From positions 1-54,594 of the forward strand of contig PFAP01000002.1 of assembly GCA_002773615.1 (NCBI GenBank): a stretch of 54,594 bases of DNA, read 5' to 3'. The notes under the pieces were generated by a model. That model worked only from the letters and a program-made list of their open reading frames with translations, was not told the DNA's origin and did not search any database. Source of the stretch: Candidatus Falkowbacteria bacterium CG10_big_fil_rev_8_21_14_0_10_39_11. GTDB lineage: Bacteria; Patescibacteriota; Patescibacteriia; UBA11705. A program made the position numbers and the translations under genes. Positions 12,104-29,146 of this stretch are shown here, piece by piece; position 1 is the first letter of the stretch; every line of letters starts with the position of its first letter.

Positions 12104-14218
12104 ATGAAAAGTAATTTATTTGTTTTTTTAAGAAACAAGAGTGTTTTAACAATTTTTTTTGGTGTTCTTTTGATATTGGCCTTGGTCAATGTTTTTTTAC
12201 CCCAAGCAATGGCTACGGCAACTGATATGCTTTTAAGTGAAGTAAGAATATCCCCTGCTGTTACAAGTCCAAATTTACAGGATAACCCATCTTTTGAGAC
12301 TTGGACCTCAAGCACCCTTGATGAGCCTTGGTTTGATGCAAATGATGATAGTATAGTCGATGTTGGAGAATATTGTGACTATGACAGTAGTGGTACTCGA
12401 ACGACTTATTCTCAAGCACTTTTTTCTACCGGAAGTTTATCTATTCTCCCCCTGGGTTCAACTTGCGGTACTTTTACGGAAGAAACAACTGATCCATACG
12501 TTGATACGTCTGCAATCAAGATGGCAACTGGAGCCTCTGAGTTACAAACGATTACAAATGTGGTTGGAAGTCAAATGTCCGTTTCAACCAGTACGGAATA
12601 TACAGTTTCATTTTACGCGAAAGGTGAAAGTGGATCAGAAAAGATTTATTTAACCATATATCTAAAGGATGGTTCAGCTGTTGAGTATAATTGGAACTTT
12701 ACATCTGGTGCATTTGACGCATATTCTGAGATACCAAGCATTGATCAATCAAATCTATTCACATTAACTACATCTTGGGCTCGATATACGTATACCTTTA
12801 CTTCAGATAAGACAGGTTCAATGGCGTTGAGTTTCTCATCTGGAACTGATGGTGCTTTACTCGGACGTGCAGACACAACCAATATGACAATTTATCTAGA
12901 TGCGGCTCAGGTAGAAGCAGCAAGCGCAGCAACCACATTTATGTCAGCTGATACAGCGAGTGCGACTTTTCTTGAATTATATAATCCAACTGATAGTGCG
13001 ATTGATATAGATAATTATATGGTCCAGTATCGTAAAGCGTCTGATGCTTGGGCTGAGTTTGGTGCTGTTACAACTACAACAAATGTTCCCTCCGGTGGTT
13101 TTTACTTGATTAAAGCTTCTGGTGGTGATCAGACCCTTACTGATGAGACTGCCTTTGATGTTGCTTATAATGCTTCTTCCGGAAATATGGCTTTTAGGGT
13201 GTGTACGAATTCGGCGGATTGTGCCAGTACAGTAATTGATACTCTGGGTCTTGCGTCTTCGCCCAGTTATGAAGGAGTTGCTTTTGATTTGAGTTCTTGG
13301 GATACATCCATGAGTTTTGAACGTAAAGCATATTCGGCATCGACGGTTGTCACGATGAGTAGTGGTGGTGGAGATGTTATTGCGGGTAATGGATATGATT
13401 CTGATGTTAATACAGATGATTTTGTTTTGCGCACAACACCAGATCCTCAATCATTAGCCAGCTCAGTAGAGGTTTATGTTGCTCCTGTGAGCACCACAAC
13501 TAGCAGTGCGGGCAACCAAAAAGCTGCCCAAGATTATTATGATGAATTGATACGCCAGCAAGAAGAATTGTTACAGGAACCAGATTTACCGGAGGTTAAT
13601 GAAGTGCCAGCGATTGATGAAACACCAGGTGAAACTGAAATAGATCAAACGGTGCCGGAAACTGACATTGAGAAAATAGTGCCGGTGGTTGAGTCTACAG
13701 TTCCTATTTTGCCGACCGAGAAAAATATTATTTCTGAAGCCTTGTCATTAAAAAATGTTGTTTTATTGATTTCAAGACTTCCCTTTGGCTCTGATTGGGA
13801 TTCGGTCCATTTTTTGAGTTATGGACTCAATGGGTTGCAAGACGGTTATACTCAAAGAGATCGTGTTGGTTTGTTGAACGATTATTATAATACAAATCAT
13901 GATTTACCCAGAAATGAATCTGATTGGGTAAATATTGTTCGTATGGCTGATGGTTTGATACCGAATGAAAAGGTTGTTGAATCTGAGCGGCGAGCCATAG
14001 AACAATTTGTTAGAATCTATAAACGATCAGTTGATTTTTCTAATAAGTCAGATGAAAAATTTGTTCATATGTTGGCTTATGGGCTTCGGGTGCAAGATCG
14101 AGATTTGCAACAAGAACAAAAAACTTTAACGTTATACGTGTCTGTGTTTGAAAGATTGCCTGATTCATCGTATCATTGGTCTGTTTTGAGAGCGATGGCT
14201 TATTCTGATGTACAATAA
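12104..14218 (+). CDS. secreted surface protein: lamin-tail-like and carbohydrate-binding-like domains, CPR-type C-terminal domain
   Basis: signal peptide, LLSEV...FLELYNPT, NPSFE motif, C-terminal WSVLRAMAYS. Confidence 0.85.
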   Translation: MKSNLFVFLRNKSVLTIFFGVLLILALVNVFLPQAMATATDMLLSEVRISPAVTSPNLQDNPSFETWTSSTLDEPWFDANDDSIVDVGEYCDYDSSGTRTTYSQALFSTGSLSILPLGSTCGTFTEETTDPYVDTSAIKMATGASELQTITNVVGSQMSVSTSTEYTVSFYAKGESGSEKIYLTIYLKDGSAVEYNWNFTSGAFDAYSEIPSIDQSNLFTLTTSWARYTYTFTSDKTGSMALSFSSGTDGALLGRADTTNMTIYLDAAQVEAASAATTFMSADTASATFLELYNPTDSAIDIDNYMVQYRKASDAWAEFGAVTTTTNVPSGGFYLIKASGGDQTLTDETAFDVAYNASSGNMAFRVCTNSADCASTVIDTLGLASSPSYEGVAFDLSSWDTSMSFERKAYSASTVVTMSSGGGDVIAGNGYDSDVNTDDFVLRTTPDPQSLASSVEVYVAPVSTTTSSAGNQKAAQDYYDELIRQQEELLQEPDLPEVNEVPAIDETPGETEIDQTVPETDIEKIVPVVESTVPILPTEKNIISEALSLKNVVLLISRLPFGSDWDSVHFLSYGLNGLQDGYTQRDRVGLLNDYYNTNHDLPRNESDWVNIVRMADGLIPNEKVVESERRAIEQFVRIYKRSVDFSNKSDEKFVHMLAYGLRVQDRDLQQEQKTLTLYVSVFERLPDSSYHWSVLRAMAYSDVQ

Positions 14219-14419: not shown

Positions 14420-17400
14420 ATGGTAAAGCAAAGCAAAAACCAGTTTAGGATTTTTACAACAGTTTTGATGCTGGCTACATTAATTTGGACGGCTGGTGTT
14501 GGTGGCTATTTATTGTTAAATCCATATAATGTCTCAGCTGGAGACTCCCCGATTGTTTTTAGTGAGGTTGAAGTCTCTCCAGGAATTTCTGGTACCAATT
14601 TGTTCACCTCTGATTCATCTTTTGAGTCTTGGGCCGATTCAACCATCCCTGAGCCGTTTGTTGATATGAATGGAAATTCAATACGTGACGAGGATGAGCC
14701 GTATTGTGATTTGGATTCCGGTGGTACACATACAACTTACTCGCAGGCATTACCTAATTCTGCTGATATTTTAGGCTTCTCTTTTGCCTGTGGCGGAAGT
14801 GTTACTCAAGAGACTACAGATGTTTATGATGGAAGTTCAGCTATCCGAATCAATACGGGTGATGGTGAAATGTGGACTGTTTATCCTAATGAAACAACGT
14901 CAATATCAAATTTAACTCAATATACGGTCTCATTTTATGCCAAGGGTTTGGTTGGCGGTGAAAAAATTTATTTGATGTTTGAGCCAACCGGTTTGGATGC
15001 TTCTGAGTACAGCTGGAATTTTGTCACTGAGTCTTCGGCCGTATATGAGGGGTTTATCACTGAAGAGACATCGAAAGTTTATGTGTTGACTGATAGTTGG
15101 GCTCGGTATACATACACCTTTACATCTGATCTTGATGGGACCGCATCGATTGGGTTTGTCGCTGGTGGTACGGGTGATGAGCCGGCTGTATTTATGGGCA
15201 GTGGTGCAAATCAAGTTATGTTGATAGATGCTGTTCAGTTTGAGGCAGATTCTACAGCCTCTTCTTATAACACCGGCGGGTCGGCTGGGTCAAATTTTGT
15301 TGAATTGTACAATCGGGGTGGTGGGGATATTGATGTTGATGGTTACACTGTTGAATATAAATTTGGGGCTGGTGACTGGGCTACTTTTGGAGCTGTTTCT
15401 GGTTCAAATACCTACTCAGGCGGTTACTTTTTCAATTTCAAAGCGTCCGGCGGAGATGCTGGGATCACTGATGAGTCAACATTTGACTCTGCTTTTTTAA
15501 CAAATTCAAATTCAATTGATGGATTGTCTTTACGATTATGCTCAAATGGTGCAGATTGCGCTAATACGATATTGGATACAGTTGGTTTTGGTTCTACTGC
15601 AACTGCATATGAGGGTGTGACGAAGGATGTGACCGGTTGGTCTCAGTCAAAGAGTTTTGAACGTAAGGCTTTATTTGATTCAACGGCTGCAACTATGGCT
15701 TCTGGTGGTAGTGATGAGCCGGCTGGAAACAGTTTTGATTCAGATAATAATAATTGGGATTTTGTGTTAAGAACCACACCTGAGCCTCAAGTCAAAAGCA
15801 GTACCCGTGAAGTTTTTGCAGACAATGTGGTTTTTGAGGATGTTAATCCGTATATTTATCATGAGCCGGTAGTCCAGGCTGATGACAATGGAGATTTGTA
15901 TTTATTCGCCGGTATTTTTGATGATAGTGATATTGCTACTACTGGTGTAAAAATATATTATCGAGTTGGAGACTCAGGATCTTTCACCGCAGCTAATTCA
16001 ACCAAAACAGTTACAGCTACTCCAGATATTACCAGTAGTGATTATTACGCCTTTATTATTCCTCAGGCTGATTTACAGGCAGCGGTTGCTGATGAGGGTG
16101 AGATTCAATATTATCTGGAGGCGAATGACGGCGTTTATACCACCACTATGCCTGATTATAATCCAACTTCATATCCTTTAAGTATTAATGTAACTGGTAC
16201 ATATACTGGAGCAAATGGTTTCTCCGGTACGGTCACGGATACGGCTAGTGCTGCTATTAATGGAGCTCTGGTTTTTATTAATGGGACTGGTTTTTTTACC
16301 TCGACCGATGCTAGTGGAAATTATAGCTTTGCATCACTCCCCTCTTCATATCAAGCCAGTGGATCATATCGAGTAACAGCGGTAATCTCTAATAGAATGG
16401 ATAGTGAATATATCGCTTATGATGGAGATACTACCGTTAATATCACTTTACCTACAGATTTTGGAAATTTTTCAGGTGGTGACAAAGAGGCTCCATTTGT
16501 TTCGTATACATCCCCTTTTGATGGTATGTACGGTATGCCGATTAATATTTGTGATCCAAATGATTCACTTCCTCCGGGAGTCGAGTTTTGTTCTCCGATT
16601 ATGGTTGGATTTTCAGAATCAATGAATTCCAGTACTGTAAATAACACTAATGTTACGGTTTATAATTGGGCAACTTCATCAAATCTCGATAATTTGACAA
16701 TTGAGGCAAATGGTAGTGACAGTGAATTTATTATTTATAGCACGACTCCCCTAGCTCCGAATACAACATATACAGTTTCTCTGGGTACGGGTGTTAAAGA
16801 TCATGCCAGCAATGCGTTGGGAGGAAATATGTCAGATGGAACGCATGAATTTACTTTTACAACAGAAGGGACTGAGTTTACCGGTGAGGGAGACCAGGAA
16901 TTTGGCAGCGGTGCTTTTCAGCCGCCATTTGTTCGAACAGTATCTCCAAATTTAGGTGGAAGTAATATTGCATTAAATGCGAAGTTGGTTGTTGATTTTG
17001 TTACTTCGGTAGACGTCTCGGAAACTAATTTAGCAAGAATTAAATTGTATGATGGCGACGATGAGATAAGTGTAACGCATACATATAGCACTGATAATCA
17101 ACGAGTATTTTTACAGCCATCGACTACATTAACGGCAAACACCGAATATGAAATTCAAGTTGCGGGTTCTTTTACTAGCAGTATGGGAGTTAGTCTTGGT
17201 GACCCTGGTCAATCTCAAAATTCCGATAATTATGTTTTCTTTGCATCGGAGTTTAAAACTGGAGCTACTTCTGATACCGTTGGACCTAAGGTGATGGGAC
17301 ATATTCCGGCATCTGGTGAAACAAGTGTAGCTGTTGGACTTTCTGCTGTTGAGATTGCGGTTAATGAATCATTGGATTCTTCTACAGTTAATACCACGAA

Positions 17401-20400
17401 TGTAAAATTAAAGAGAGGTAGTACTGTGGTGGGGGCTGAGGTGGTTTATAAGGAAACGGCAAAGGCAATCAGAATTTTGCCAAGTTCAGCTCTTCAAGCA
17501 AATACATCCTACACCGTTACTGTTGGTGTGGGTGTGACGGATATAGTCGGTAATGCATTTAATCAAGATGAAGACGCTTCAAATGGTGAGGCGTTGGAAG
17601 ATGTGTACGTATTTCAGTTTACGACAATGTCCACGATTGAATCTACCGCTCCTACAGTTATGGATGCCAGATGTGATGATTATCAATGTGTAATTACGTA
17701 CAGTGAATCCATGAATCATGTAAAGCAGATAAATACTGAAGATTGGACTGATGCTGTGGGTAAATGGGAAACAAGTGTGTTAAATAAAACTAATTATAAT
17801 ATTTCTGTCGATACCGGGGGCGGGCTGGCTTCGGCTGATCTTTCATCGGTTTTGTTATCTTATGACGGATATACAAACACTGTATCAATTAAAAATTTGA
17901 ATTTGTTAAGTGGTGTGGCCAATCCTGTCGGACAGCAAATGCCATATACCGTTACGGTTTATAGTTCGGTTGAGGCTGGGAAAGATGGTGTTCGGGATGT
18001 AGTTGGAAATGCTTTGGCTGCAAATGCTGTTTATGGTGGAAGTGTGGAGCTGAGTTCGGCAACTGGTGGTTTCTTTGGCCCTGATGCTGATGGTTTTGGG
18101 TCAGATGGTCCAGGAGATTTTGGTATGCATGATGCTGCAACCATGGGTGAAAAACCAATCGGTGTTTGGCCAATGAACGGTTTGGTCGGTTCAACGACTC
18201 ATTATTTTGTTGACCTTCCAGTTACTTCCGTTGTCCCAAATGGGGGGATTATCACGATGCTGTTTCCAAGTGGTTTCAACGTTGCCAATGCAGCAATAGA
18301 TTCAAATAGTCCAATGAATAAAGATGTTTCAGCCGGCTCGGGAAATGTTACCTTGAATTGTAGTGGTGATGCGGCTACTCGTTTGATAACGTGTACAGTT
18401 ACTGGAGCAACCAACACCAATGATTATTTGAGCTTTGAATTGAAAGGAATTGTAAATTCAAATATACCTAAAGATTTTAATACATCTGGTTATACGGTTG
18501 AGGTAAAAACAAAAAATGGTTCAACTTTACTGGAATCATTTACCACTATGCCATTTTTTATCACAGCTGGTGGAAATAATAGTATAACGTTGAATGTTTA
18601 TGCCGGAGCCAAGGTTGATGCGACAACCGGAAGTGTTGATGTTGATGGGACAACAATGAATTTGTTTGTTGGATCACCTATGACCGGTCCTTTGGATCAG
18701 ACTGTGACCTTTACGAACGGATATGCCACCGCAACTATCAATAATCTGCCTTCAGGTGAATATTTTGCATTTACCGAGCCGTCAGTTACATTGGGAGCCA
18801 GTGATTATTCCGGGATAATGCCAGAGCCTATTCACTTGAACTCATCAGTTAGCAAAGATTTGATTTTAAGTCGGATGGATGAATCATCGGCGGCAGCTTT
18901 GACGGTTTTGCTTACCGGAGATTTTGGAGCTGATGAAGATGTGGATATTTTTGCCGGTCATCCAAAGGGTTTTGTTGTCAAGACGATTGAAAATGTTGGT
19001 TCGGTTGTAAATCAACCTTATACAGTATATTTACCTTACAATGGTGACTGGTTCGTTGGAATGGGACCGTCTATGTCAAAGGGTGCAGTGGCGACGACTA
19101 TCGCTATGCCTGACTGGATGCCTCCAAAAGATAAAATGCTCAAAGTCACTGGGGTTGGAGAGTCGGTGCAAATAAAAAATATTGAAACACAAGGTGATGT
19201 AACCAGCAGTGGAGTTTCATTTGCCATATCTCAAGCGAATTATCAAATTAATGGAACTGTTGTTGATGGTTCAAATAATGTTATTGCCAATGCAGAGGTT
19301 TGGGCTTATCAACCGATGGGGTTTGGTGGAAGCGGTAATTTTACTCGGACTGGGTCAGATGGAACATTTACTCTAAAGATTGCCGAGTATGGAGTCTACA
19401 AAGTAGGTGCTTTTTTGCCAGGAATGCCAGAGTCACCTGAACTTTCAATCAATGTAAAGGCCAATTCAGCAGAAGTTGATGGAAATGCAACCTCAGATAT
19501 TTATCGTGGAGGTACTTTGGTCACTGCTGGTAATCCGTTTAAATTAAAATTATTAAAAGCTGATTATACGATTTCGGGTAAGGTTAAGGATGCAAATGCA
19601 AATGCTATTCAATATGCACCAGTTTGGGCTGAAGAAACAACGACTAAACAGCTAGTTCATGCTGGTACCGATTCCGGTGGTAGTTACGTGTTATATGTGG
19701 GGGCTGGAACTTGGTTGGTAAAATCAGAAGCACCATTTGGATCTGATGCCTGTGGTGGTATAAGTAAGACGGTGACGGTTGTAGATGGCTCGAAAACGGG
19801 ACAAAATTTGGAGCCAACAGCTGGGACGTGTTATACCCTGAGCGGTACGATTTCAATTGGTGGAACTCTTCAAACAAATGCGCCTGTATTTGTTGATGGT
19901 TGGACTGGTGATTTGAATACCGGCTATCCAAATGGAATCTTTAAGGATGCAAAGACAAATAGTGCCGGTCAGTTTTCAGTCAAGGTAGGAAATGGTACAT
20001 ATCGAGTCGGAACATGGACTTCTGATTTTGGTGAACGTGCGATTCTTGTCTCGATAAGTGGTGCAGATTCATCAGGAAATGACATTACGGTGACTAGTGA
20101 TAATTTGAAAACTTTAACGATTGATTTTACTGGGGGGCTATCTTCGATGACCGGTTTTCTGGAAGCAAAAAAAATAAACACTTCTGATCGACGCGGGAAA
20201 CCGGTAAGTAATTTGGCAGCCTCAGAAACAATGCAGTTAGAATCGGGTATGTATAAAGTTTTTTTACATGTTGATGGTGTTGGAGATTTCAATAATGCGA
20301 GTGTCGATTTGTCTTCTGATGCTTCAGTGGTTTTTGACATTTCATCTGTTTCATTAAATACTCTTACTGGAACGGTTGAGGATACCGATGGTACGGCGGT

Positions 20401-22063
20401 GCCAAATGCTTGGGTTTGGGTACATGATCCAAACACTGATTATCATAATGGTGTGGCAACGGGTTCGGATGGTACTTATTCAATGTCGGTTAAATCTGGT
20501 ACTGGGTTTAAGATTGGTGTTGATAAACCGAATTATGTATCCCCGGCCCCCCATAATATCAATATTTCCGGAACTGCAAGTTACGATTTTACGAATAATA
20601 TGGGATTGAGTGCGACTCAATATATAATTTCAGGTACGGCTACGGGAACAAATTTGGCTGATGGATTTATTTGGGCTGAAAGTGCGACTGAAGGCTGGTC
20701 TGGTAGCCCAATTGATATTGATGGTACTTTTTCGTTGCCGGTTTCAGATGGTACCTGGACATTGAAAGGTGTGGCGGCTTTGCATGCAGAGACCACCTAT
20801 GGCAGTCCAATTGTCATTGACGGTGCAAGTCAAACCGGAATTTCATTTGCATTGACTTCGGATGTAACCAAATCGGTAAAATCAGCAGTAAATTCAATTA
20901 CGCCATCTGTTGGTGGGGTGATTCAAGACAATGATGTCGGGGCCAAAGTGGTGGTTCCACCAAACGCTTTGGGTAGTGGTTCAAGTGCCGGTAATATGAC
21001 AATGGCAAAATCCTATACGGCTCCATCCACCAACGCATATGCTCCATTGGAAGGGCAATCAATTAATATAAGTGTTACAGACAATAATGGACAACCAATT
21101 ACAAATTTGAACGATCAAGTTGAGCTAACTTTGGATTATTCGGTTGACAATTTGCCTGCTGGGGTAGTAGAAGATGATTTGGTCCCAGCGTATTGGGATG
21201 GTACGACAAATCAATGGATTCCAATTACTGGAGTTCAAGATTCAGATGATAATTCTTTTACCGCACAAACAGATCACTTTACTATTTTTGGTGTGGTTTA
21301 TTCCCCATTGGTATCATCATCAAGTGCAGCTACAAACAGTAGTCGTTCGAGTCAGTTGGCTGAGGAAGGCCGGGTTGAATCAGATGTAACAGGAACAACA
21401 GATTCGATCGAAATTATTGATGAAGCTACTGATTCTGCTGATGAAGAAACCGTAAATGAGGCTACTGATGAAATTACTGATTCTGTTGATGAATTAGAAA
21501 CTGTGACGGAAGTTGTTGAAGAAGTAGTCGAGGATACAACTCGGTATGTCCCTATTTTGCCAACGACTAGAGATTTGGATGGTGAAAAGGATGCGATCTC
21601 AAAATATGTTGGTTTGGAAAACAGGTTGCCAGCTGGTGATGACTGGAAGGTGGTGCAATTTATTACTTATGGCGGTGCCAGTGAGACTCAAAATCTCACC
21701 GATCGTGAAAGAGTTGGGTTGTTGGTAGATTTTAAAGATATGTATGGTCGAGTACCAAGCTCTGATATAGATTGGAAAGATCTTAATCTAATTGCACAGG
21801 GTGAGCAACCAACTCGGATTATACCGCGAGAAGCAGACGCTATTAGAGATTTTATGGATGTTTACGGTCGTTTAGTTAATTTTAAGAGTCAAGTTGAAGA
21901 AAAATTTGTTCACATGGTTGCCTATCGATACCGAGTTGAGTCTAGAGATTTGAACAAGGAAAATACAGCTTTGGGTATATTCTCAAATGCATATGGTTAC
22001 TTGCCAAATAGTGCACATCTTTGGTCAGTGCTTCGTGCAATTGCCTATTCGGGGGTGAAATAA
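14420..22063 (+). CDS. giant surface protein (2547 aa): lamin-tail-like, repeated Ig-like (Big_5-type) and carboxypeptidase-regulatory-like domains
   Basis: signal peptide; FSESMNSSTV/LAPNTTYTV Ig repeats; ISGTV.D...AW repeats; TDHFTIF; C-terminal WSVLRAIAYSG. Confidence 0.9.
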   Translation: MVKQSKNQFRIFTTVLMLATLIWTAGVGGYLLLNPYNVSAGDSPIVFSEVEVSPGISGTNLFTSDSSFESWADSTIPEPFVDMNGNSIRDEDEPYCDLDSGGTHTTYSQALPNSADILGFSFACGGSVTQETTDVYDGSSAIRINTGDGEMWTVYPNETTSISNLTQYTVSFYAKGLVGGEKIYLMFEPTGLDASEYSWNFVTESSAVYEGFITEETSKVYVLTDSWARYTYTFTSDLDGTASIGFVAGGTGDEPAVFMGSGANQVMLIDAVQFEADSTASSYNTGGSAGSNFVELYNRGGGDIDVDGYTVEYKFGAGDWATFGAVSGSNTYSGGYFFNFKASGGDAGITDESTFDSAFLTNSNSIDGLSLRLCSNGADCANTILDTVGFGSTATAYEGVTKDVTGWSQSKSFERKALFDSTAATMASGGSDEPAGNSFDSDNNNWDFVLRTTPEPQVKSSTREVFADNVVFEDVNPYIYHEPVVQADDNGDLYLFAGIFDDSDIATTGVKIYYRVGDSGSFTAANSTKTVTATPDITSSDYYAFIIPQADLQAAVADEGEIQYYLEANDGVYTTTMPDYNPTSYPLSINVTGTYTGANGFSGTVTDTASAAINGALVFINGTGFFTSTDASGNYSFASLPSSYQASGSYRVTAVISNRMDSEYIAYDGDTTVNITLPTDFGNFSGGDKEAPFVSYTSPFDGMYGMPINICDPNDSLPPGVEFCSPIMVGFSESMNSSTVNNTNVTVYNWATSSNLDNLTIEANGSDSEFIIYSTTPLAPNTTYTVSLGTGVKDHASNALGGNMSDGTHEFTFTTEGTEFTGEGDQEFGSGAFQPPFVRTVSPNLGGSNIALNAKLVVDFVTSVDVSETNLARIKLYDGDDEISVTHTYSTDNQRVFLQPSTTLTANTEYEIQVAGSFTSSMGVSLGDPGQSQNSDNYVFFASEFKTGATSDTVGPKVMGHIPASGETSVAVGLSAVEIAVNESLDSSTVNTTNVKLKRGSTVVGAEVVYKETAKAIRILPSSALQANTSYTVTVGVGVTDIVGNAFNQDEDASNGEALEDVYVFQFTTMSTIESTAPTVMDARCDDYQCVITYSESMNHVKQINTEDWTDAVGKWETSVLNKTNYNISVDTGGGLASADLSSVLLSYDGYTNTVSIKNLNLLSGVANPVGQQMPYTVTVYSSVEAGKDGVRDVVGNALAANAVYGGSVELSSATGGFFGPDADGFGSDGPGDFGMHDAATMGEKPIGVWPMNGLVGSTTHYFVDLPVTSVVPNGGIITMLFPSGFNVANAAIDSNSPMNKDVSAGSGNVTLNCSGDAATRLITCTVTGATNTNDYLSFELKGIVNSNIPKDFNTSGYTVEVKTKNGSTLLESFTTMPFFITAGGNNSITLNVYAGAKVDATTGSVDVDGTTMNLFVGSPMTGPLDQTVTFTNGYATATINNLPSGEYFAFTEPSVTLGASDYSGIMPEPIHLNSSVSKDLILSRMDESSAAALTVLLTGDFGADEDVDIFAGHPKGFVVKTIENVGSVVNQPYTVYLPYNGDWFVGMGPSMSKGAVATTIAMPDWMPPKDKMLKVTGVGESVQIKNIETQGDVTSSGVSFAISQANYQINGTVVDGSNNVIANAEVWAYQPMGFGGSGNFTRTGSDGTFTLKIAEYGVYKVGAFLPGMPESPELSINVKANSAEVDGNATSDIYRGGTLVTAGNPFKLKLLKADYTISGKVKDANANAIQYAPVWAEETTTKQLVHAGTDSGGSYVLYVGAGTWLVKSEAPFGSDACGGISKTVTVVDGSKTGQNLEPTAGTCYTLSGTISIGGTLQTNAPVFVDGWTGDLNTGYPNGIFKDAKTNSAGQFSVKVGNGTYRVGTWTSDFGERAILVSISGADSSGNDITVTSDNLKTLTIDFTGGLSSMTGFLEAKKINTSDRRGKPVSNLAASETMQLESGMYKVFLHVDGVGDFNNASVDLSSDASVVFDISSVSLNTLTGTVEDTDGTAVPNAWVWVHDPNTDYHNGVATGSDGTYSMSVKSGTGFKIGVDKPNYVSPAPHNINISGTASYDFTNNMGLSATQYIISGTATGTNLADGFIWAESATEGWSGSPIDIDGTFSLPVSDGTWTLKGVAALHAETTYGSPIVIDGASQTGISFALTSDVTKSVKSAVNSITPSVGGVIQDNDVGAKVVVPPNALGSGSSAGNMTMAKSYTAPSTNAYAPLEGQSINISVTDNNGQPITNLNDQVELTLDYSVDNLPAGVVEDDLVPAYWDGTTNQWIPITGVQDSDDNSFTAQTDHFTIFGVVYSPLVSSSSAATNSSRSSQLAEEGRVESDVTGTTDSIEIIDEATDSADEETVNEATDEITDSVDELETVTEVVEEVVEDTTRYVPILPTTRDLDGEKDAISKYVGLENRLPAGDDWKVVQFITYGGASETQNLTDRERVGLLVDFKDMYGRVPSSDIDWKDLNLIAQGEQPTRIIPREADAIRDFMDVYGRLVNFKSQVEEKFVHMVAYRYRVESRDLNKENTALGIFSNAYGYLPNSAHLWSVLRAIAYSGVK

Positions 22064-26298: not shown

Positions 26299-26423
26299 AT
26301 TTTTAAATTATAAATTGTAGGAAGGTTACTTAATAATAAAAACTATAATGTTTTGTTTCAATAATACGTTTTTTGAAGACAAAGTCAATGTTTCTTGTAT
26401 GAGAGTATACTCGTGACAGTTAC

Positions 26424-26485
26424 CCTTCCCGCCTTCACAATAGTTTCGGCGGACAGGCGAGTGCCCTGCCTGCCGGTAGGTAAGG
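26424..26485. repeat. two adjacent palindromic elements (CCTTCCCGCC...GGCGGACAGG and CCTGCCTGCCGGTAGG)
   Basis: same families occur at 6935, 47852 and 50589. Confidence 0.65.
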
Positions 26486-26624
26486 CTCTCGAAGTATAGT
26501 TACTTAGCACTTATTCATATACATATTTATATCACAACTATCAAGTTTAGTGAAGTATTTCTAAAATGGTGACGTCTTTAAGTGCCTTAAATTAGCTATT
26601 TTTGTAAAATTGTGTTAACTGGTA

Positions 26625-26653
26625 TTGACACTATTGAAAAACTATGCTATAAT
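26625..26653 (+). promoter_or_regulatory. perfect sigma70 promoter P1
   Basis: TTGACA 26625-30, 17 nt, TG-C-TATAAT 26648-53. Confidence 0.85.
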
Positions 26654-26769
26654 GGTTTATTAAGCTGAGAAATTTGTGAGTTCATTATAAGACATCTGGA
26701 TCATTTTGTTGAGGCAACGCCTCTCTATAGTATATAGCTTGTCGTTATATTATATAGATATTTTTAGCC

Positions 26770-26798
26770 TTGACAAAATAATTTAAGTGTGTTATAAT
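26770..26798 (+). promoter_or_regulatory. perfect sigma70 promoter P2
   Basis: TTGACA 26770-75, 17 nt, TG-T-TATAAT 26793-98. Confidence 0.85.
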
Positions 26799-26804
26799 AT
26801 TCAC

Positions 26805-27085
26805 ATGATCATTAAAATGTGAGGTAATTTAAAGCAACAACTCTTATTGAATTTGCACATTGTCATTCACGGGTTTAACCCGGGAATTTACAAGGTCAAA
26901 TTCAATGAGGGTTGTGAGATAGTGTCTCCTACCCTGTAGCGTCGCGAAAGGTTCGGCTCGGATTCGTTGATTCACTCTGGTCCTAACATAAACAGGACCT
27001 TTGGGCTATTGCAGCCGACAAACGTGAAATCAACTTTTCCATGGCCGGACCGATCACCTTTCGAATGGGGTTAAATCCCCTTTAT
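26805..27085 (+). ncRNA. structured 5' leader or ncRNA of unknown family
   Basis: rod-like hairpin 26837-26915 with G-U pairs; multibranch domain 26945-27063; hairpin 27067-27080. Confidence 0.6.
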
Positions 27086-27097
27086 TGGAGGATCTAC

Positions 27098-28219
27098 ATG
27101 TCCAACGTGAAGCAGGCCACCGAGATTCAGTTCTCCTACCCGACGTCGATTCAGGCTCTCGTGGCCGAAAACGGAAGCGCGTTCAATCCGAACGCGCTCG
27201 TCCAGTCGGAACTGTTCGTGACCGCGGGCCAGACGCAGGCGCCGCGACCGTTCCAAGCGCGCTATGCGCGCGTGCTGGTCGACAGCGGGCGTCTGTTCAA
27301 CGCGAACGACTCCGGAGTGGTGCTCCGGAGCGTTGGCGCGGTCAACATGAAACTGAGAGCGGCCGGGAAGCCCCTGGTCGACGGCAGTTTCATTCCGCTC
27401 GCCGAGGCGCTCGGCATTCGCCGGGCCCGTGACCAGTACGGTGACGACCTCGAGTCGCTGCTCATCAGCGACGACGAGAAGGTCATCCTGACCGGAGAGG
27501 AGGTCCGTGACCTGGACCTCGATCCCATCACGCTCCAGGAGCGTATGGGTTCCGGTGCCGGAGTGATGGATTTGGAGCGTGTCGCCCGCTGGGAACAGCG
27601 GATGCGCCTCTACGAGGCCGCGATCGAGGCGAACTCGGCGATCTTCGCCGAGCTCAAGGGCAACATCGAACAGGACACGCGGAACGGATGGAGTGAGGCG
27701 ATCTGCCAGACCACCGAGGCGTGGCTCAAGTTCGTGGAAGCCATGAACGCCTTCGCGGAGGAGATGGGCTTCAAGTGGGACGGTACGCCGGCCCCGCCGA
27801 CCCCCCCCGCCTTCCCGCTCGCCGTCCTTCGCATCTACGCGAGGGGCAAGGGCCTCCGGTTCGTCCTTCTCGTCCCGGACAATCGCCACAAGGCGGCGGC
27901 GATGATGAAGTGGAGCGAGCAGATGGAGCACGCTCGCGAGCCGGAGAACTATCGGGACTTCACCGACAAGGTTCTGGCTCCCCTGAACATCATGCAGGCT
28001 CGCCTGCGTGAGAACGGGGTTCCGCAGGACGCTCCCACCTTCCAGGACAAGGCGGAAGTGCTCACCACGAACTTCCTCAGCGTCGCTGGGGTGTCGCTGG
28101 AAGAGCTGGCCGATCAGTCCCGGGCGCCGCGCGAGGACCGGCCCCGTGGCAAGGGTAAGCGCGGTGACCGTCACTCGCGCAGGTCCCAGGGTCACCAGTG
28201 GGTGCCCAACGCCGACTGA
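27098..28219 (+). CDS. GC-rich orphan protein with Arg/Lys-rich C-terminal tail
   Basis: GGAGG SD at 27087-91 before ATG 27098; strong C/G third-position bias; terminator downstream. Confidence 0.85.
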   Translation: MSNVKQATEIQFSYPTSIQALVAENGSAFNPNALVQSELFVTAGQTQAPRPFQARYARVLVDSGRLFNANDSGVVLRSVGAVNMKLRAAGKPLVDGSFIPLAEALGIRRARDQYGDDLESLLISDDEKVILTGEEVRDLDLDPITLQERMGSGAGVMDLERVARWEQRMRLYEAAIEANSAIFAELKGNIEQDTRNGWSEAICQTTEAWLKFVEAMNAFAEEMGFKWDGTPAPPTPPAFPLAVLRIYARGKGLRFVLLVPDNRHKAAAMMKWSEQMEHAREPENYRDFTDKVLAPLNIMQARLRENGVPQDAPTFQDKAEVLTTNFLSVAGVSLEELADQSRAPREDRPRGKGKRGDRHSRRSQGHQWVPNAD

Positions 28220-28289
28220 GACCGCTGAGTTTGAGACGACCTCACATTCCCCGTGATCCTTCCGCCTCTTCCGAGGCAAGAACGAAAAT

Positions 28290-28324
28290 AAGATCCAAGC
28301 AACCGCTTGGATCTTTTCCCTTTT
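28290..28324 (+). terminator. intrinsic terminator
   Basis: AAGATCCAAGC-AACC-GCTTGGATCTT followed by a pyrimidine run. Confidence 0.8.
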
Positions 28325-28552
28325 AAATAATTCTAAGAAGTAAGGCATTATACTTAATGAATTGTCATTGAAGCTTTGCTGGGCTTATCTTATTGCTGAA
28401 TAATTTATCCTTTTATTTTTTTATGATGTTTATTGACTTTAGGCTATCTTGATTGTATGATAAAAATAGAGCTATTTCACTAACAGAGCAATCATCTGCT
28501 GGGAGGCGCAGATTGAGACTCTATCAATGCACGTACTTTCTCGGAGGTGACC

Positions 28553-29146
28553 ATGTCTAAAGAAAAATGTGAGCCTGGTCGTTTTTTTAGAGTCACCGAT
28601 GACTTCTGGCGGGATCTACTATCGAGACAAATGAAGTTCCACCAAGGTGTTGATGGCTTTGATATCGCCGAAATTTTTTCGGCTCGAGACAGACGCCTGG
28701 TGTTCATGGTTCCTAGATTGTCGAGCGACATTGGCGCCATTGATATGAAGCTGGTGCAAAGTATTGTGTCAAGTCCAAGTCAGTGTCAGGACTTTGATCG
28801 TATTCCTTTCTCTGTGCAAATTTTGAAAACGGTTGGGTTGGTTTATTTCGTGCAGATGACGGTTGATGATTTGAAGGTTGCGGTATTAATTGCAGTGCCC
28901 TATTCCAAATATAGCCAGGAATATGATGGATATATTGGTTTTATTAAATTGGATAAGGTCAAGTGGTCGGATGTAGGGAAAATTGAATTTGATTCTGATG
29001 ACCATTCTATGGTTTATCGAGATTATGTGTCTGGTGATATGGAAATATGTCTGATGGTCAAGAAAGAACACAAGGACACTAGAATCTCCTTGTCACCATC
29101 CATTAGCATGAGTACAGATGGCCGGAGATTTATTCGAGTATCATAA
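28553..29146 (+). CDS. hypothetical protein
   Basis: GGAGGTG SD before ATG 28553; terminator CAGACT..AGTCTG follows. Confidence 0.7.
   Translation: MSKEKCEPGRFFRVTDDFWRDLLSRQMKFHQGVDGFDIAEIFSARDRRLVFMVPRLSSDIGAIDMKLVQSIVSSPSQCQDFDRIPFSVQILKTVGLVYFVQMTVDDLKVAVLIAVPYSKYSQEYDGYIGFIKLDKVKWSDVGKIEFDSDDHSMVYRDYVSGDMEICLMVKKEHKDTRISLSPSISMSTDGRRFIRVS

Follow-up and report, generated by a model that had tools for sequence, protein, structure and literature searches.

In organisms that use RNase J, 5' roadblocks such as stable structures, or ribosomes at a strong Shine-Dalgarno (SD) site, stabilize long downstream stretches of mRNA, as outlined in PMC3997798. For example, the hbs mRNA of Bacillus subtilis combines a highly structured 5' untranslated region (UTR) with a strong SD and thereby blocks RNase J1 (PMC5737220). 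Here, a structured RNA leader in front of a GC-rich orphan open reading frame (ORF) is described from a 54,594-nt stretch of DNA (the window), which is contig C30 of a candidate phyla radiation (CPR) genome, Candidatus Falkowbacteria (G000; 1.10 Mb in 53 contigs, 85% complete, 39% GC). The region flagged at positions 26837 to 27080 belongs to a native, monocistronic gene unit, of which it is the structured 5' UTR; the element is a real, conserved and previously uncatalogued structured RNA leader. Structured leaders are already known from other mRNAs; this one represents a new family, whose exact form was restricted to two genomes among those searched, G000 and a sister species of the same genus (G001).

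Several described systems resemble this leader in part. The hbs gene is preceded by tandem promoters. Purine and thiamine pyrophosphate (TPP) riboswitch aptamers, also located in 5' UTRs, are built on a three-way junction with covarying helices round conserved strands, and RNase III sites occur in the Escherichia coli pnp and rnc leaders and in the early region of phage T7. With the B. subtilis-type stabilizers (hbs, the aprE leader stem-loop, ermC and STAB-SD; PMC5737220 and references in PMC3997798), the present leader shares a structured 5' UTR, a GGAGG-type site, a monocistronic gene, a terminator hairpin and an RNase J host. The likeness to hbs extends to the high degree of structure in the 5' UTR and to the gene product, which is basic and nucleic acid-binding in hbs and has a basic tail here. 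The leader departs from these stabilizers in its much greater length (about 290 nt from promoter P2 and about 440 nt from promoter P1), its multidomain build and a three-way junction whose unpaired strands are conserved. Its hairpins do not stand at the very 5' end predicted for the transcript, and neither sequence nor Rfam relates it to the stabilizers. In addition, RNase Y opens the hbs leader, whereas neither the RNase Y N-domain nor RNase E/G was found in the 85%-complete G000 genome. The purine and TPP aptamers are matched in their covarying helices, conserved junction strands and 5' UTR position just ahead of the SD, but not in the rest: there was no Rfam match and no consistent expression platform, the fold is known from two genomes only, and the downstream gene is an orphan without a metabolic link. 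As in the pnp, rnc and T7 sites, the 5' leader contains a near-perfect hairpin of some 20 bp or more, and the genome encodes RNase III; here, in contrast, the hairpins are candidate cleavage sites embedded in a larger conserved multidomain fold. In our best reading, the leader would work most like the Gram-positive 5' stabilizer leaders.

The unit lies divergent from gltX, and the same slot is occupied in G001 and in two further genera of the same family (G002 and G004). From 5' to 3' it consists of promoter P1, a long hairpin (domain 0) enclosing promoter P2, a rod, a linker, a junction domain, a GC hairpin, the SD, a 373-codon ORF and a terminator, as follows (positions are those of the window; G001 coordinates are given on L015):

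26625..26653, + strand: promoter P1, TTGACA-17-TATAAT with a TG extension, 12 of 12 matches (G001 equivalent at L015 891-919)
26675..26805, + strand: domain 0, a long irregular hairpin of the P1 transcript, from fold energy and shuffle z
26770..26798, + strand: promoter P2, TTGACA-17-TATAAT with a TG extension, kept in G001 (L015 1081-1109)
26837..26915, + strand: domain 1, a 79-nt rod with a 19-bp base helix and 15 apical pairs, from shuffle z and strand bias
26916..26944, + strand: linker with conserved GAGAU, GUCUCC and ACC blocks, from alignments; its UCUCC is complementary to the SD
26945..27063, + strand: domain 2, a long bulged stem closing a three-way junction, from shuffle z; its junction strands UCU, UUUG and GACAAAC are conserved with G001
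26966-75/27024-34, + strand: helix P1 of domain 2
26979-84/26994-99, + strand: helix P2 of domain 2
27004-07/27013-16, + strand: helix P3 of domain 2
27067..27080, + strand: domain 3, a GGGG/CCCC hairpin 6 nt 5' of the SD; a GC-rich hairpin is also present in G001, G002 and G004
27087..27092, + strand: SD, GGAGGA; GGAGG(A) is present in four of four units of the slot
27098..28219, + strand: GC-rich orphan ORF of 373 aa (P0001) with a basic C-terminal tail
28290..28325, + strand: intrinsic terminator, an 11-pair hairpin (28290-28315) with a U-rich tail (G001 equivalent at L015 2626-2651)

In both G000 and G001, promoters were found only upstream of the leader, and no terminator common to the two species was found between leader and ORF. 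Since the ORF also starts 6 nt past the GGAGGA, the structured region is a leader of this ORF. A short U-rich run follows the pre-SD hairpin in G000 and is missing in G001, and thus this hairpin is not a conserved terminator; the actual terminator lies about 70 nt past the stop codon in both species (71 nt in G000). The unit therefore has its own promoter, leader, strong SD, GC-rich ORF and terminator. It is single-copy in the G000 genome, and contigs from four DNA runs gave identical fragments with no variants. P1 and P2 are both perfect extended sigma-70 promoters. TTGACA-17-TATAAT occurs 34 times in the G000 genome, so that what stands out is less the perfect match of either promoter than their arrangement in tandem. 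A promoter closely similar to P2 also heads the G002 unit. On the - strand, a promoter-like TCAACA-17-TATAAT at 26712-26684 is the mirror image of promoter P2 and forms the 5' arm of domain 0; besides being an RNA arm, it could serve as a divergent promoter toward gltX.

All of the stems described in the sequence-only reading were present between 26837 and 27080. The outer stem of the 79-nt rod (26837-26855/26897-26915) consists of 19 bp with two G-U pairs as the sole non-Watson-Crick pairs, and it encloses the inner stems UUGU/ACAA, AUUC/GAAU and CGGGU/ACCCG. In the second domain, the stems CGAAAGGU (26945-52)/ACCUUUCG (27056-63) and GUUGAUUCAC/GUGAAAUCAAC and the junction hairpins GGUCCU/AGGACC and GGCU/AGCC were found. 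Ahead of the SD, GGGG (27067-70) pairs with CCCC (27077-80), followed by GGAGGA at 27087-92 and the ATG at 27098. The stem UCGGCUCGG/CCGGACCGA was present as well, but it contains a C-A mismatch and adopts two registers among the minimum-energy folds. Compared with 200 dinucleotide shuffles, the segment 26837-27100 was far more stable (-99.8 versus -67.3 ± 4.7 kcal/mol; z of -6.92), and none of the 200 was as good. Folded separately, the rod had a z of -9.44 and the junction domain a z of -4.84. The structured region exceeds the flagged span: the additional long hairpin at 26675-26805, domain 0, had an energy of -50.5 kcal/mol (z of -5.95) with seven G-U pairs in its arms, compared with -34.0 kcal/mol on the - strand, and its equivalent in G001 had a z of -4.43. 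The 3' arm of domain 0 is promoter P2 itself, and the hairpin would form in the P1 transcript.

No Rfam family accounts for this fold. Across the whole 54.6-kb window, no match reached the gathering score of Rfam 15, and a scan of 26550-28450 at E ≤ 10 gave nothing meaningful. In the leader, the sole matches at that level were the S15 leader (12.5 bits against a required 39.5; E of 9.7) and MIR2670 (13.7 bits against 117). The tolerance of G-U pairs had been taken as a sign of selection at the RNA level. For the rod this interpretation held, with folding energies of -37.6 kcal/mol on the + strand and -30.5 kcal/mol on the - strand in G000, and of -38.5 and -24.8 kcal/mol in G001. The junction domain, being strand-neutral (-43.7 versus -44.0 kcal/mol), did not bear it out. 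In general, the view of the region as an unrecognized multidomain structured leader under RNA-level selection was supported, both by the lack of an Rfam family and by the preservation of the fold in the orthologous leader.

The same unit was found in G001 within a fully syntenic block. The flanking M23 peptidase, gltX, the next ORF (199 aa), a NUDIX protein, WecG and an 876-aa protein are 79%, 75%, 52%, 69%, 66% and 86% identical between the two species, respectively, whereas the GC-rich proteins (P0001 and its ortholog P0002) are about 41% identical, below all of the flanks (52 to 86%). The leader of G001 has the same three-part architecture (z of -7.46), and its junction domain alone has a z of -5.05. 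In the alignable part, 40 pairs were compared and 98.8% of the cells were paired, compared with 36 to 49% when the partners were slid by 1 to 3 columns. In four pairs both partners had changed (rod base, one pair; helix P2, one; helix P3, two), and in two a single partner had changed to give G-U. The rod base helix was conserved except for one swap of C-G to A-U, with 19 pairs in G000 and 20 in G001, G-U pairs as the only deviations and these at identical positions in both species. In G001, the apex of the rod and the outer junction stems retain their pairing despite a wholly different sequence, and the apex had z values of -2.9 and -3.1 in the two species. Unpaired blocks were identical in both species, namely GAGAU, GUCUCC and the junction strands UCU and GACAAA, which lie beside UUCAC/GUGAA. 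A covariance model matched the G001 core of domain 2 at 29.9 bits, with the three compensatory pairs in helices P2 and P3. The longest exact run shared with G001 is 13 nt here, and those in other intergenic regions are 7 to 18 nt. AT-rich spacers align at 0.64 to 0.78 regardless, and intergenic identity is thus uninformative as a neutral yardstick.

Beyond the genus, the slot divergent from gltX carries a GC-rich ORF in all four genomes, which cover three genera. The G002 ORF encodes 371 aa (P0004) with a GC content at third codon positions (GC3) of 0.89 and a basic tail; that of G004 runs off the contig after 19 codons, of which 19 end in G or C. When P0004 was compared with the P0001 family by hhalign, the probability was 2.6% with a two-sequence profile and 27% (E of 6.7e-4, 133 collinear columns) with a three-sequence profile. 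Together with the shared slot, size and basic tail, this is suggestive of P0004 being a very remote ortholog. Among 61 genomes, a search with P0004 found only itself. The leaders of G002 and G004 (z of -5.48 and -4.85) share the same layout (a promoter, a long rod hairpin, a GC hairpin, a U-rich spacer and then GGAGG), with sequences unrelated to that of G000, and no junction domain was found in the G002 leader. The rods differ in sequence and range from 55 to 95 nt across the genera. The energies on the + and - strands were -30.9 versus -26.4 and -37.4 versus -26.1 kcal/mol for G002 and G004, so that all four rods favor the transcribed strand, by 4.5 to 13.7 kcal/mol. Better folding of the transcribed strand points to selection on RNA and not on a DNA palindrome.

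Searches for further copies returned the same two leaders. Over the order, the covariance model R1 matched 2 of 26 genomes (G000 and G001), and a leader search across genome contigs returned the G001 record only. When 26600-27100 was searched by blastn, 10 of 61 genomes were matched, eight of them by promoter parts only. Three of these eight promoters front GC-elevated ORFs, in L004 (G032; GC3 of 0.72), L008 (G025; 0.78) and L010 (G002; 0.89), and the other five do not, which hints that the promoter type may travel with GC-rich units. The leader pattern had no match in viral contigs. In metagenome contigs it matched 15 chance loci, none with an AT-rich flank, the leader and a GC-rich ORF together. 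Among these, L027-L029 are one AT-rich contig found three times, whose hairpin is unrelated to the leader; about 60 nt past the pattern match, a perfect hairpin is followed by three iteron-like direct repeats of about 21 nt (CATCCAGTA.T..ACTTTTT).

The sequence-only reading described the leader but missed the extreme and persistent GC-richness of the ORF behind it. The ORF (27098-28219) has 63 to 72% GC against a background of 37 to 39%. Its GC content by codon position is 0.67/0.44/0.85, which is the signature of a real coding frame, and the GC3 of neighboring genes is 0.29 to 0.45. In G001, the GC3 of the ORF is 0.97. At 88 fourfold-degenerate sites of conserved residues, the third base was shared at 0.42, compared with 0.41 expected from composition, and thus the silent sites are saturated. 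Nevertheless, 83% of these sites in G000 and 97% in G001 are G or C, which rules out a recent import that has not yet ameliorated: the GC-richness has persisted at the orthologous site through speciation, and some force holds the gene at high GC in both lineages. Such persistence is not what the standard amelioration model expects of foreign DNA; it suggests a force specific to this gene, be it selection acting on the mRNA or a biased process at the locus. No paper on persistent GC-rich genes in CPR genomes was found by full-text search, and PMC12455944 mentions amelioration only in passing. This actively maintained and puzzling GC content of the ORF is what gives the locus its wider interest.

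The product, P0001, looks cytoplasmic and ends in an R/K/G-rich tail, and tails of this kind occur in three genera. No relatives of P0001 were found in Pfam, PHROGs, PADLOC, NCBIfam or PDB sequences, and a search for homologous proteins returned P0001 alone. A HMMER profile search of 1.84 billion representative proteins gave E ≤ 0.001 for three only: P0001, P0002 and P0003, a 198-aa orphan (E of 9e-6) that hhalign aligned over the C-terminal half with a probability of 95.7%. Against the 301 genomes of the class, P0003 gave one weak match (E of 0.006, with an internal stop) and nothing convincing. None of the three proteins looks derived from a GC-rich lineage. AlphaFold gave no usable model of P0001 (predicted local distance difference test score [pLDDT] of 39.5 at full length; pLDDT of 60.2 and predicted template modeling score of 0.56 for the C-terminal half). 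The best Foldseek match in the PDB had an E of 1.0, and no fold, capsid-like folds included, was assigned. A whole-protein search of the Atlas gave no usable match; an assignment of part of P0001 to DUF3150 (Atlas score of 0.83) was below the bar and unsupported by Pfam, and it was rejected. The unit was also considered as a phage moron or recent horizontal islet and rejected as such: its flanks are housekeeping genes, no PHROG or PADLOC match gave it a prophage or mobile context, and none of the three proteins at E ≤ 0.001 looks like a homolog from a GC-rich donor. An antisense ORF at 27071-28348 is a by-product of the high GC3; it runs through the terminator and is far less conserved (E of 5e-18 against G001) than the sense frame (41% identity; E of 2e-68). 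ATG 27041 was rejected as a different start codon, since it lacks both an SD and conservation in G001.

The four leaders keep a rod hairpin, a GC hairpin and GGAGG in three genera by structure and not by sequence, which argues for a protective and ribosome-loading role; a requirement for structure alone fits a physical barrier better than an aptamer. Thus, we tentatively favor the view that the leader is a cis-acting protective and ribosome-loading module for its own mRNA, a reading that stops just short of being probable. G000 encodes RNase J (TIGR00649; 558.9 bits with a cutoff of 400 bits), the 5'-end-dependent decay enzyme on which such protection depends, and it encodes RNase III (139 bits). 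The rod, and on P1 transcripts domain 0 as well, would block the 5'-to-3' exonuclease RNase J, and both hairpins are possible targets for trimming by RNase III as well. The small GC hairpin, beside an A/U-rich spacer and a strong ribosome site (GGAGGA 6 nt ahead of the ATG), would keep that site defined and occupied before the very GC-rich body. Together, the 5' module and the 3' terminator hairpin would yield a long-lived and well-translated mRNA. The junction strands are conserved while the helices round them change; the junction domain is specific to the genus and probably serves as a binding site for a trans-acting factor, possibly the basic-tailed P0001 itself. Structure, conservation, strand and colinearity with the ORF were observed, as were the two RNase genes; from these we infer stabilization, processing and factor binding.

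Several points weigh against this protective role. Transcription start sites, processing and half-life are all read from sequence. Classical 5' stabilizers are located at, or a few nucleotides from, the 5' end, whereas about 30 nt (promoter P2) or 15 to 25 nt (promoter P1) of single strand would precede the first hairpin at the predicted start sites. A plain barrier needs no three-way junction with conserved strands, and the conserved unpaired GAGAU, GUCUCC, UCU and GACAAA argue for a more specific role. The perfect 19- to 20-bp helices could equally invite RNase III cleavage and so destabilize the mRNA. The covariation statistics are weak because the exact leader is present in two genomes only; in a two-sequence shuffle control, 22 of 500 shuffles reached the observed values, and 72 of 500 did so on the model-fitted core.

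The analysis did not discriminate between the two options originally offered for the leader, a cis-regulatory motif and a packaging or export signal. In a regulatory variant, the junction domain would be an aptamer or a protein-binding site (of a riboswitch, an autoregulatory operator for P0001 or a thermosensor) that controls ribosome access. We consider this possible but on the doubtful side. The UCU, U-UG and GACAAA strands and UUCAC/GUGAA are identical in the two species, while helices P2 and P3 carry three compensatory changes and the outer stems have been rewritten. This conserved core is known from two genomes of one genus, whereas a riboswitch aptamer would be expected to keep it across many lineages; with two sequences only, the conserved blocks could also reflect limited divergence (runs of 7 to 18 nt elsewhere versus 13 nt here). 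The conserved UCUCC is complementary to the SD and pairs with it in the G001 fold without the coding sequence, and the G000 SD is predicted to be mostly paired. However, the SD partners differ between the species, and no conserved SD-sequestering helix was predicted. An anti-SD switch by UCUCC:GGAGG was therefore not consistently supported: the predictions disagree, and the forced state is 4 to 8 kcal/mol worse than the ensemble. These disagreeing predictions and this cost do not support a riboswitch-like platform. A terminator platform is not conserved either, the U run being present in G000 only, the G002 leader is without the junction domain and the gene behind the leader suggests no ligand. 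Less likely still is a processing module in which RNase III cleaves domain 0 and the rod, thereby maturing the mRNA 5' end or freeing a stable small RNA. The base helix does reach the roughly 20 bp or more of near-uninterrupted double-stranded RNA typical of such sites (19 pairs in G000 and 20 in G001, with the G-U positions kept), the enzyme is encoded and rod hairpins occur in four of four slot leaders, but the rods differ in length (55 to 95 nt) and sequence by genus and cleavage itself would have to be assumed. Nothing marks a discrete small RNA, as no terminator follows the rod and no separate promoter drives it.

A packaging, localization or export signal, through which the mRNA would associate with the basic-tailed protein that it encodes or pass to a partner cell, is in our view very unlikely. 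The GC-rich codons would then have a role other than normal translation in the cell that makes the mRNA. Consistent with this are the GC3 of 0.85 to 0.97 at saturated silent sites in an AT-rich genome, an orphan protein with its R/K/G-rich tail in three genera and the long multidomain leader. The coding bodies themselves folded at mean z values of -1.76 and -0.98, compared with about -0.3 for two control genes; this shift gives weak support at most to selection on RNA structure and may reflect codon periodicity lost in the shuffles. Against this, nothing observed requires such a signal and no capsid-like or other fold was found. The 45 tRNAs detected in G000 include G34 and C34 species that read GC-ending codons, and thus translation in the producing cell needs no special explanation. 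Other GC-rich genes of G000 have short plain leaders and signal peptides, and the GC-richness is therefore not tied to this leader. A broader proposal, that leader and GC-rich body form a purpose-built class of armored mRNA in CPR bacteria with GC codons under RNA-level selection, would have somewhat better prospects than export but is still improbable. The selection might then be for longevity, for ribonucleoprotein assembly with the basic-tailed protein or for delivery beyond the producing cell, and the multidomain leader would be a handle recruiting a protein or machinery. If true, codon composition would be an RNA-level selected trait, maintained for a very long time in an AT-rich genome. 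Finally, the inverted repeats might act in DNA, as a cruciform or as the recombination or transposition ends of a mobile cassette. The unit is indeed a GC-rich cassette of compact size whose intergenic slot is flanked by housekeeping genes, its junction domain is strand-neutral and dispersed palindromic repeats are frequent in G000. However, domain 0 and the four rods fold markedly better on the transcribed strand, owing to G-U pairs, and the unit is single-copy in G000 and occupies the same syntenic site in four genomes, with no terminal repeats or transposase found at it. Of all the explanations, this one is the least credible. Whichever role the leader has, the unit is a compact test case with clear movable parts (rod, junction, GC hairpin, strong SD and terminator) for asking whether cassettes of this kind encode mRNAs of unusual stability or special handling, and why CPR bacteria retain these cassettes.

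Persistent GC-richness was confirmed at this locus and, in part, in a second G000 family, a cysteine-rich secreted protein (contig C27), whose GC3 is 0.76 to 0.84 in both species, with one paralog at 0.42. The leaders of the other GC-rich G000 genes are short and simple, and the four-domain leader is thus particular to this unit. Six further GC-elevated genes (GC3 of 0.65 to 0.78) are located at C27:8358-9434, C5:17302-18186, C15:4209-4682, C15:4905-5402, C23:2337-3026 and C45:7041-7502; their N-termini resemble signal peptides or those of lipoproteins, their promoters are native and at or near consensus, and Pfam gave no match. At several consensus promoters (for example, C27:8272, C5 upstream of 18186 and C52:1623), a second TTGACAA(CC) lies in the leader, 10 to 20 nt past the -10 box.

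Upstream of the unit, 26420-26505 holds a copy of a dispersed GC-rich palindromic repeat with the core CCTGCCTGCCG, often between GTCACCCTGA...AGGGTGAC arms. The core has 31 matches in G000 (for example, C27:8160-8240), and many unrelated contigs touch 26420-26505. Directly downstream of the unit, 28547-29146 (+ strand) encodes a 199-aa orphan of normal GC content and without a family match, behind a promoter-like site at 28433-28461; its counterpart at this position in G001 is a 260-aa ORF with 52% identity. Elsewhere in the window, 12104-14218 and 14420-22063 (+ strand) encode tandem giant surface-type proteins of 704 and 2547 aa with LTD, Big_5 and CarboxypepD_reg domains.

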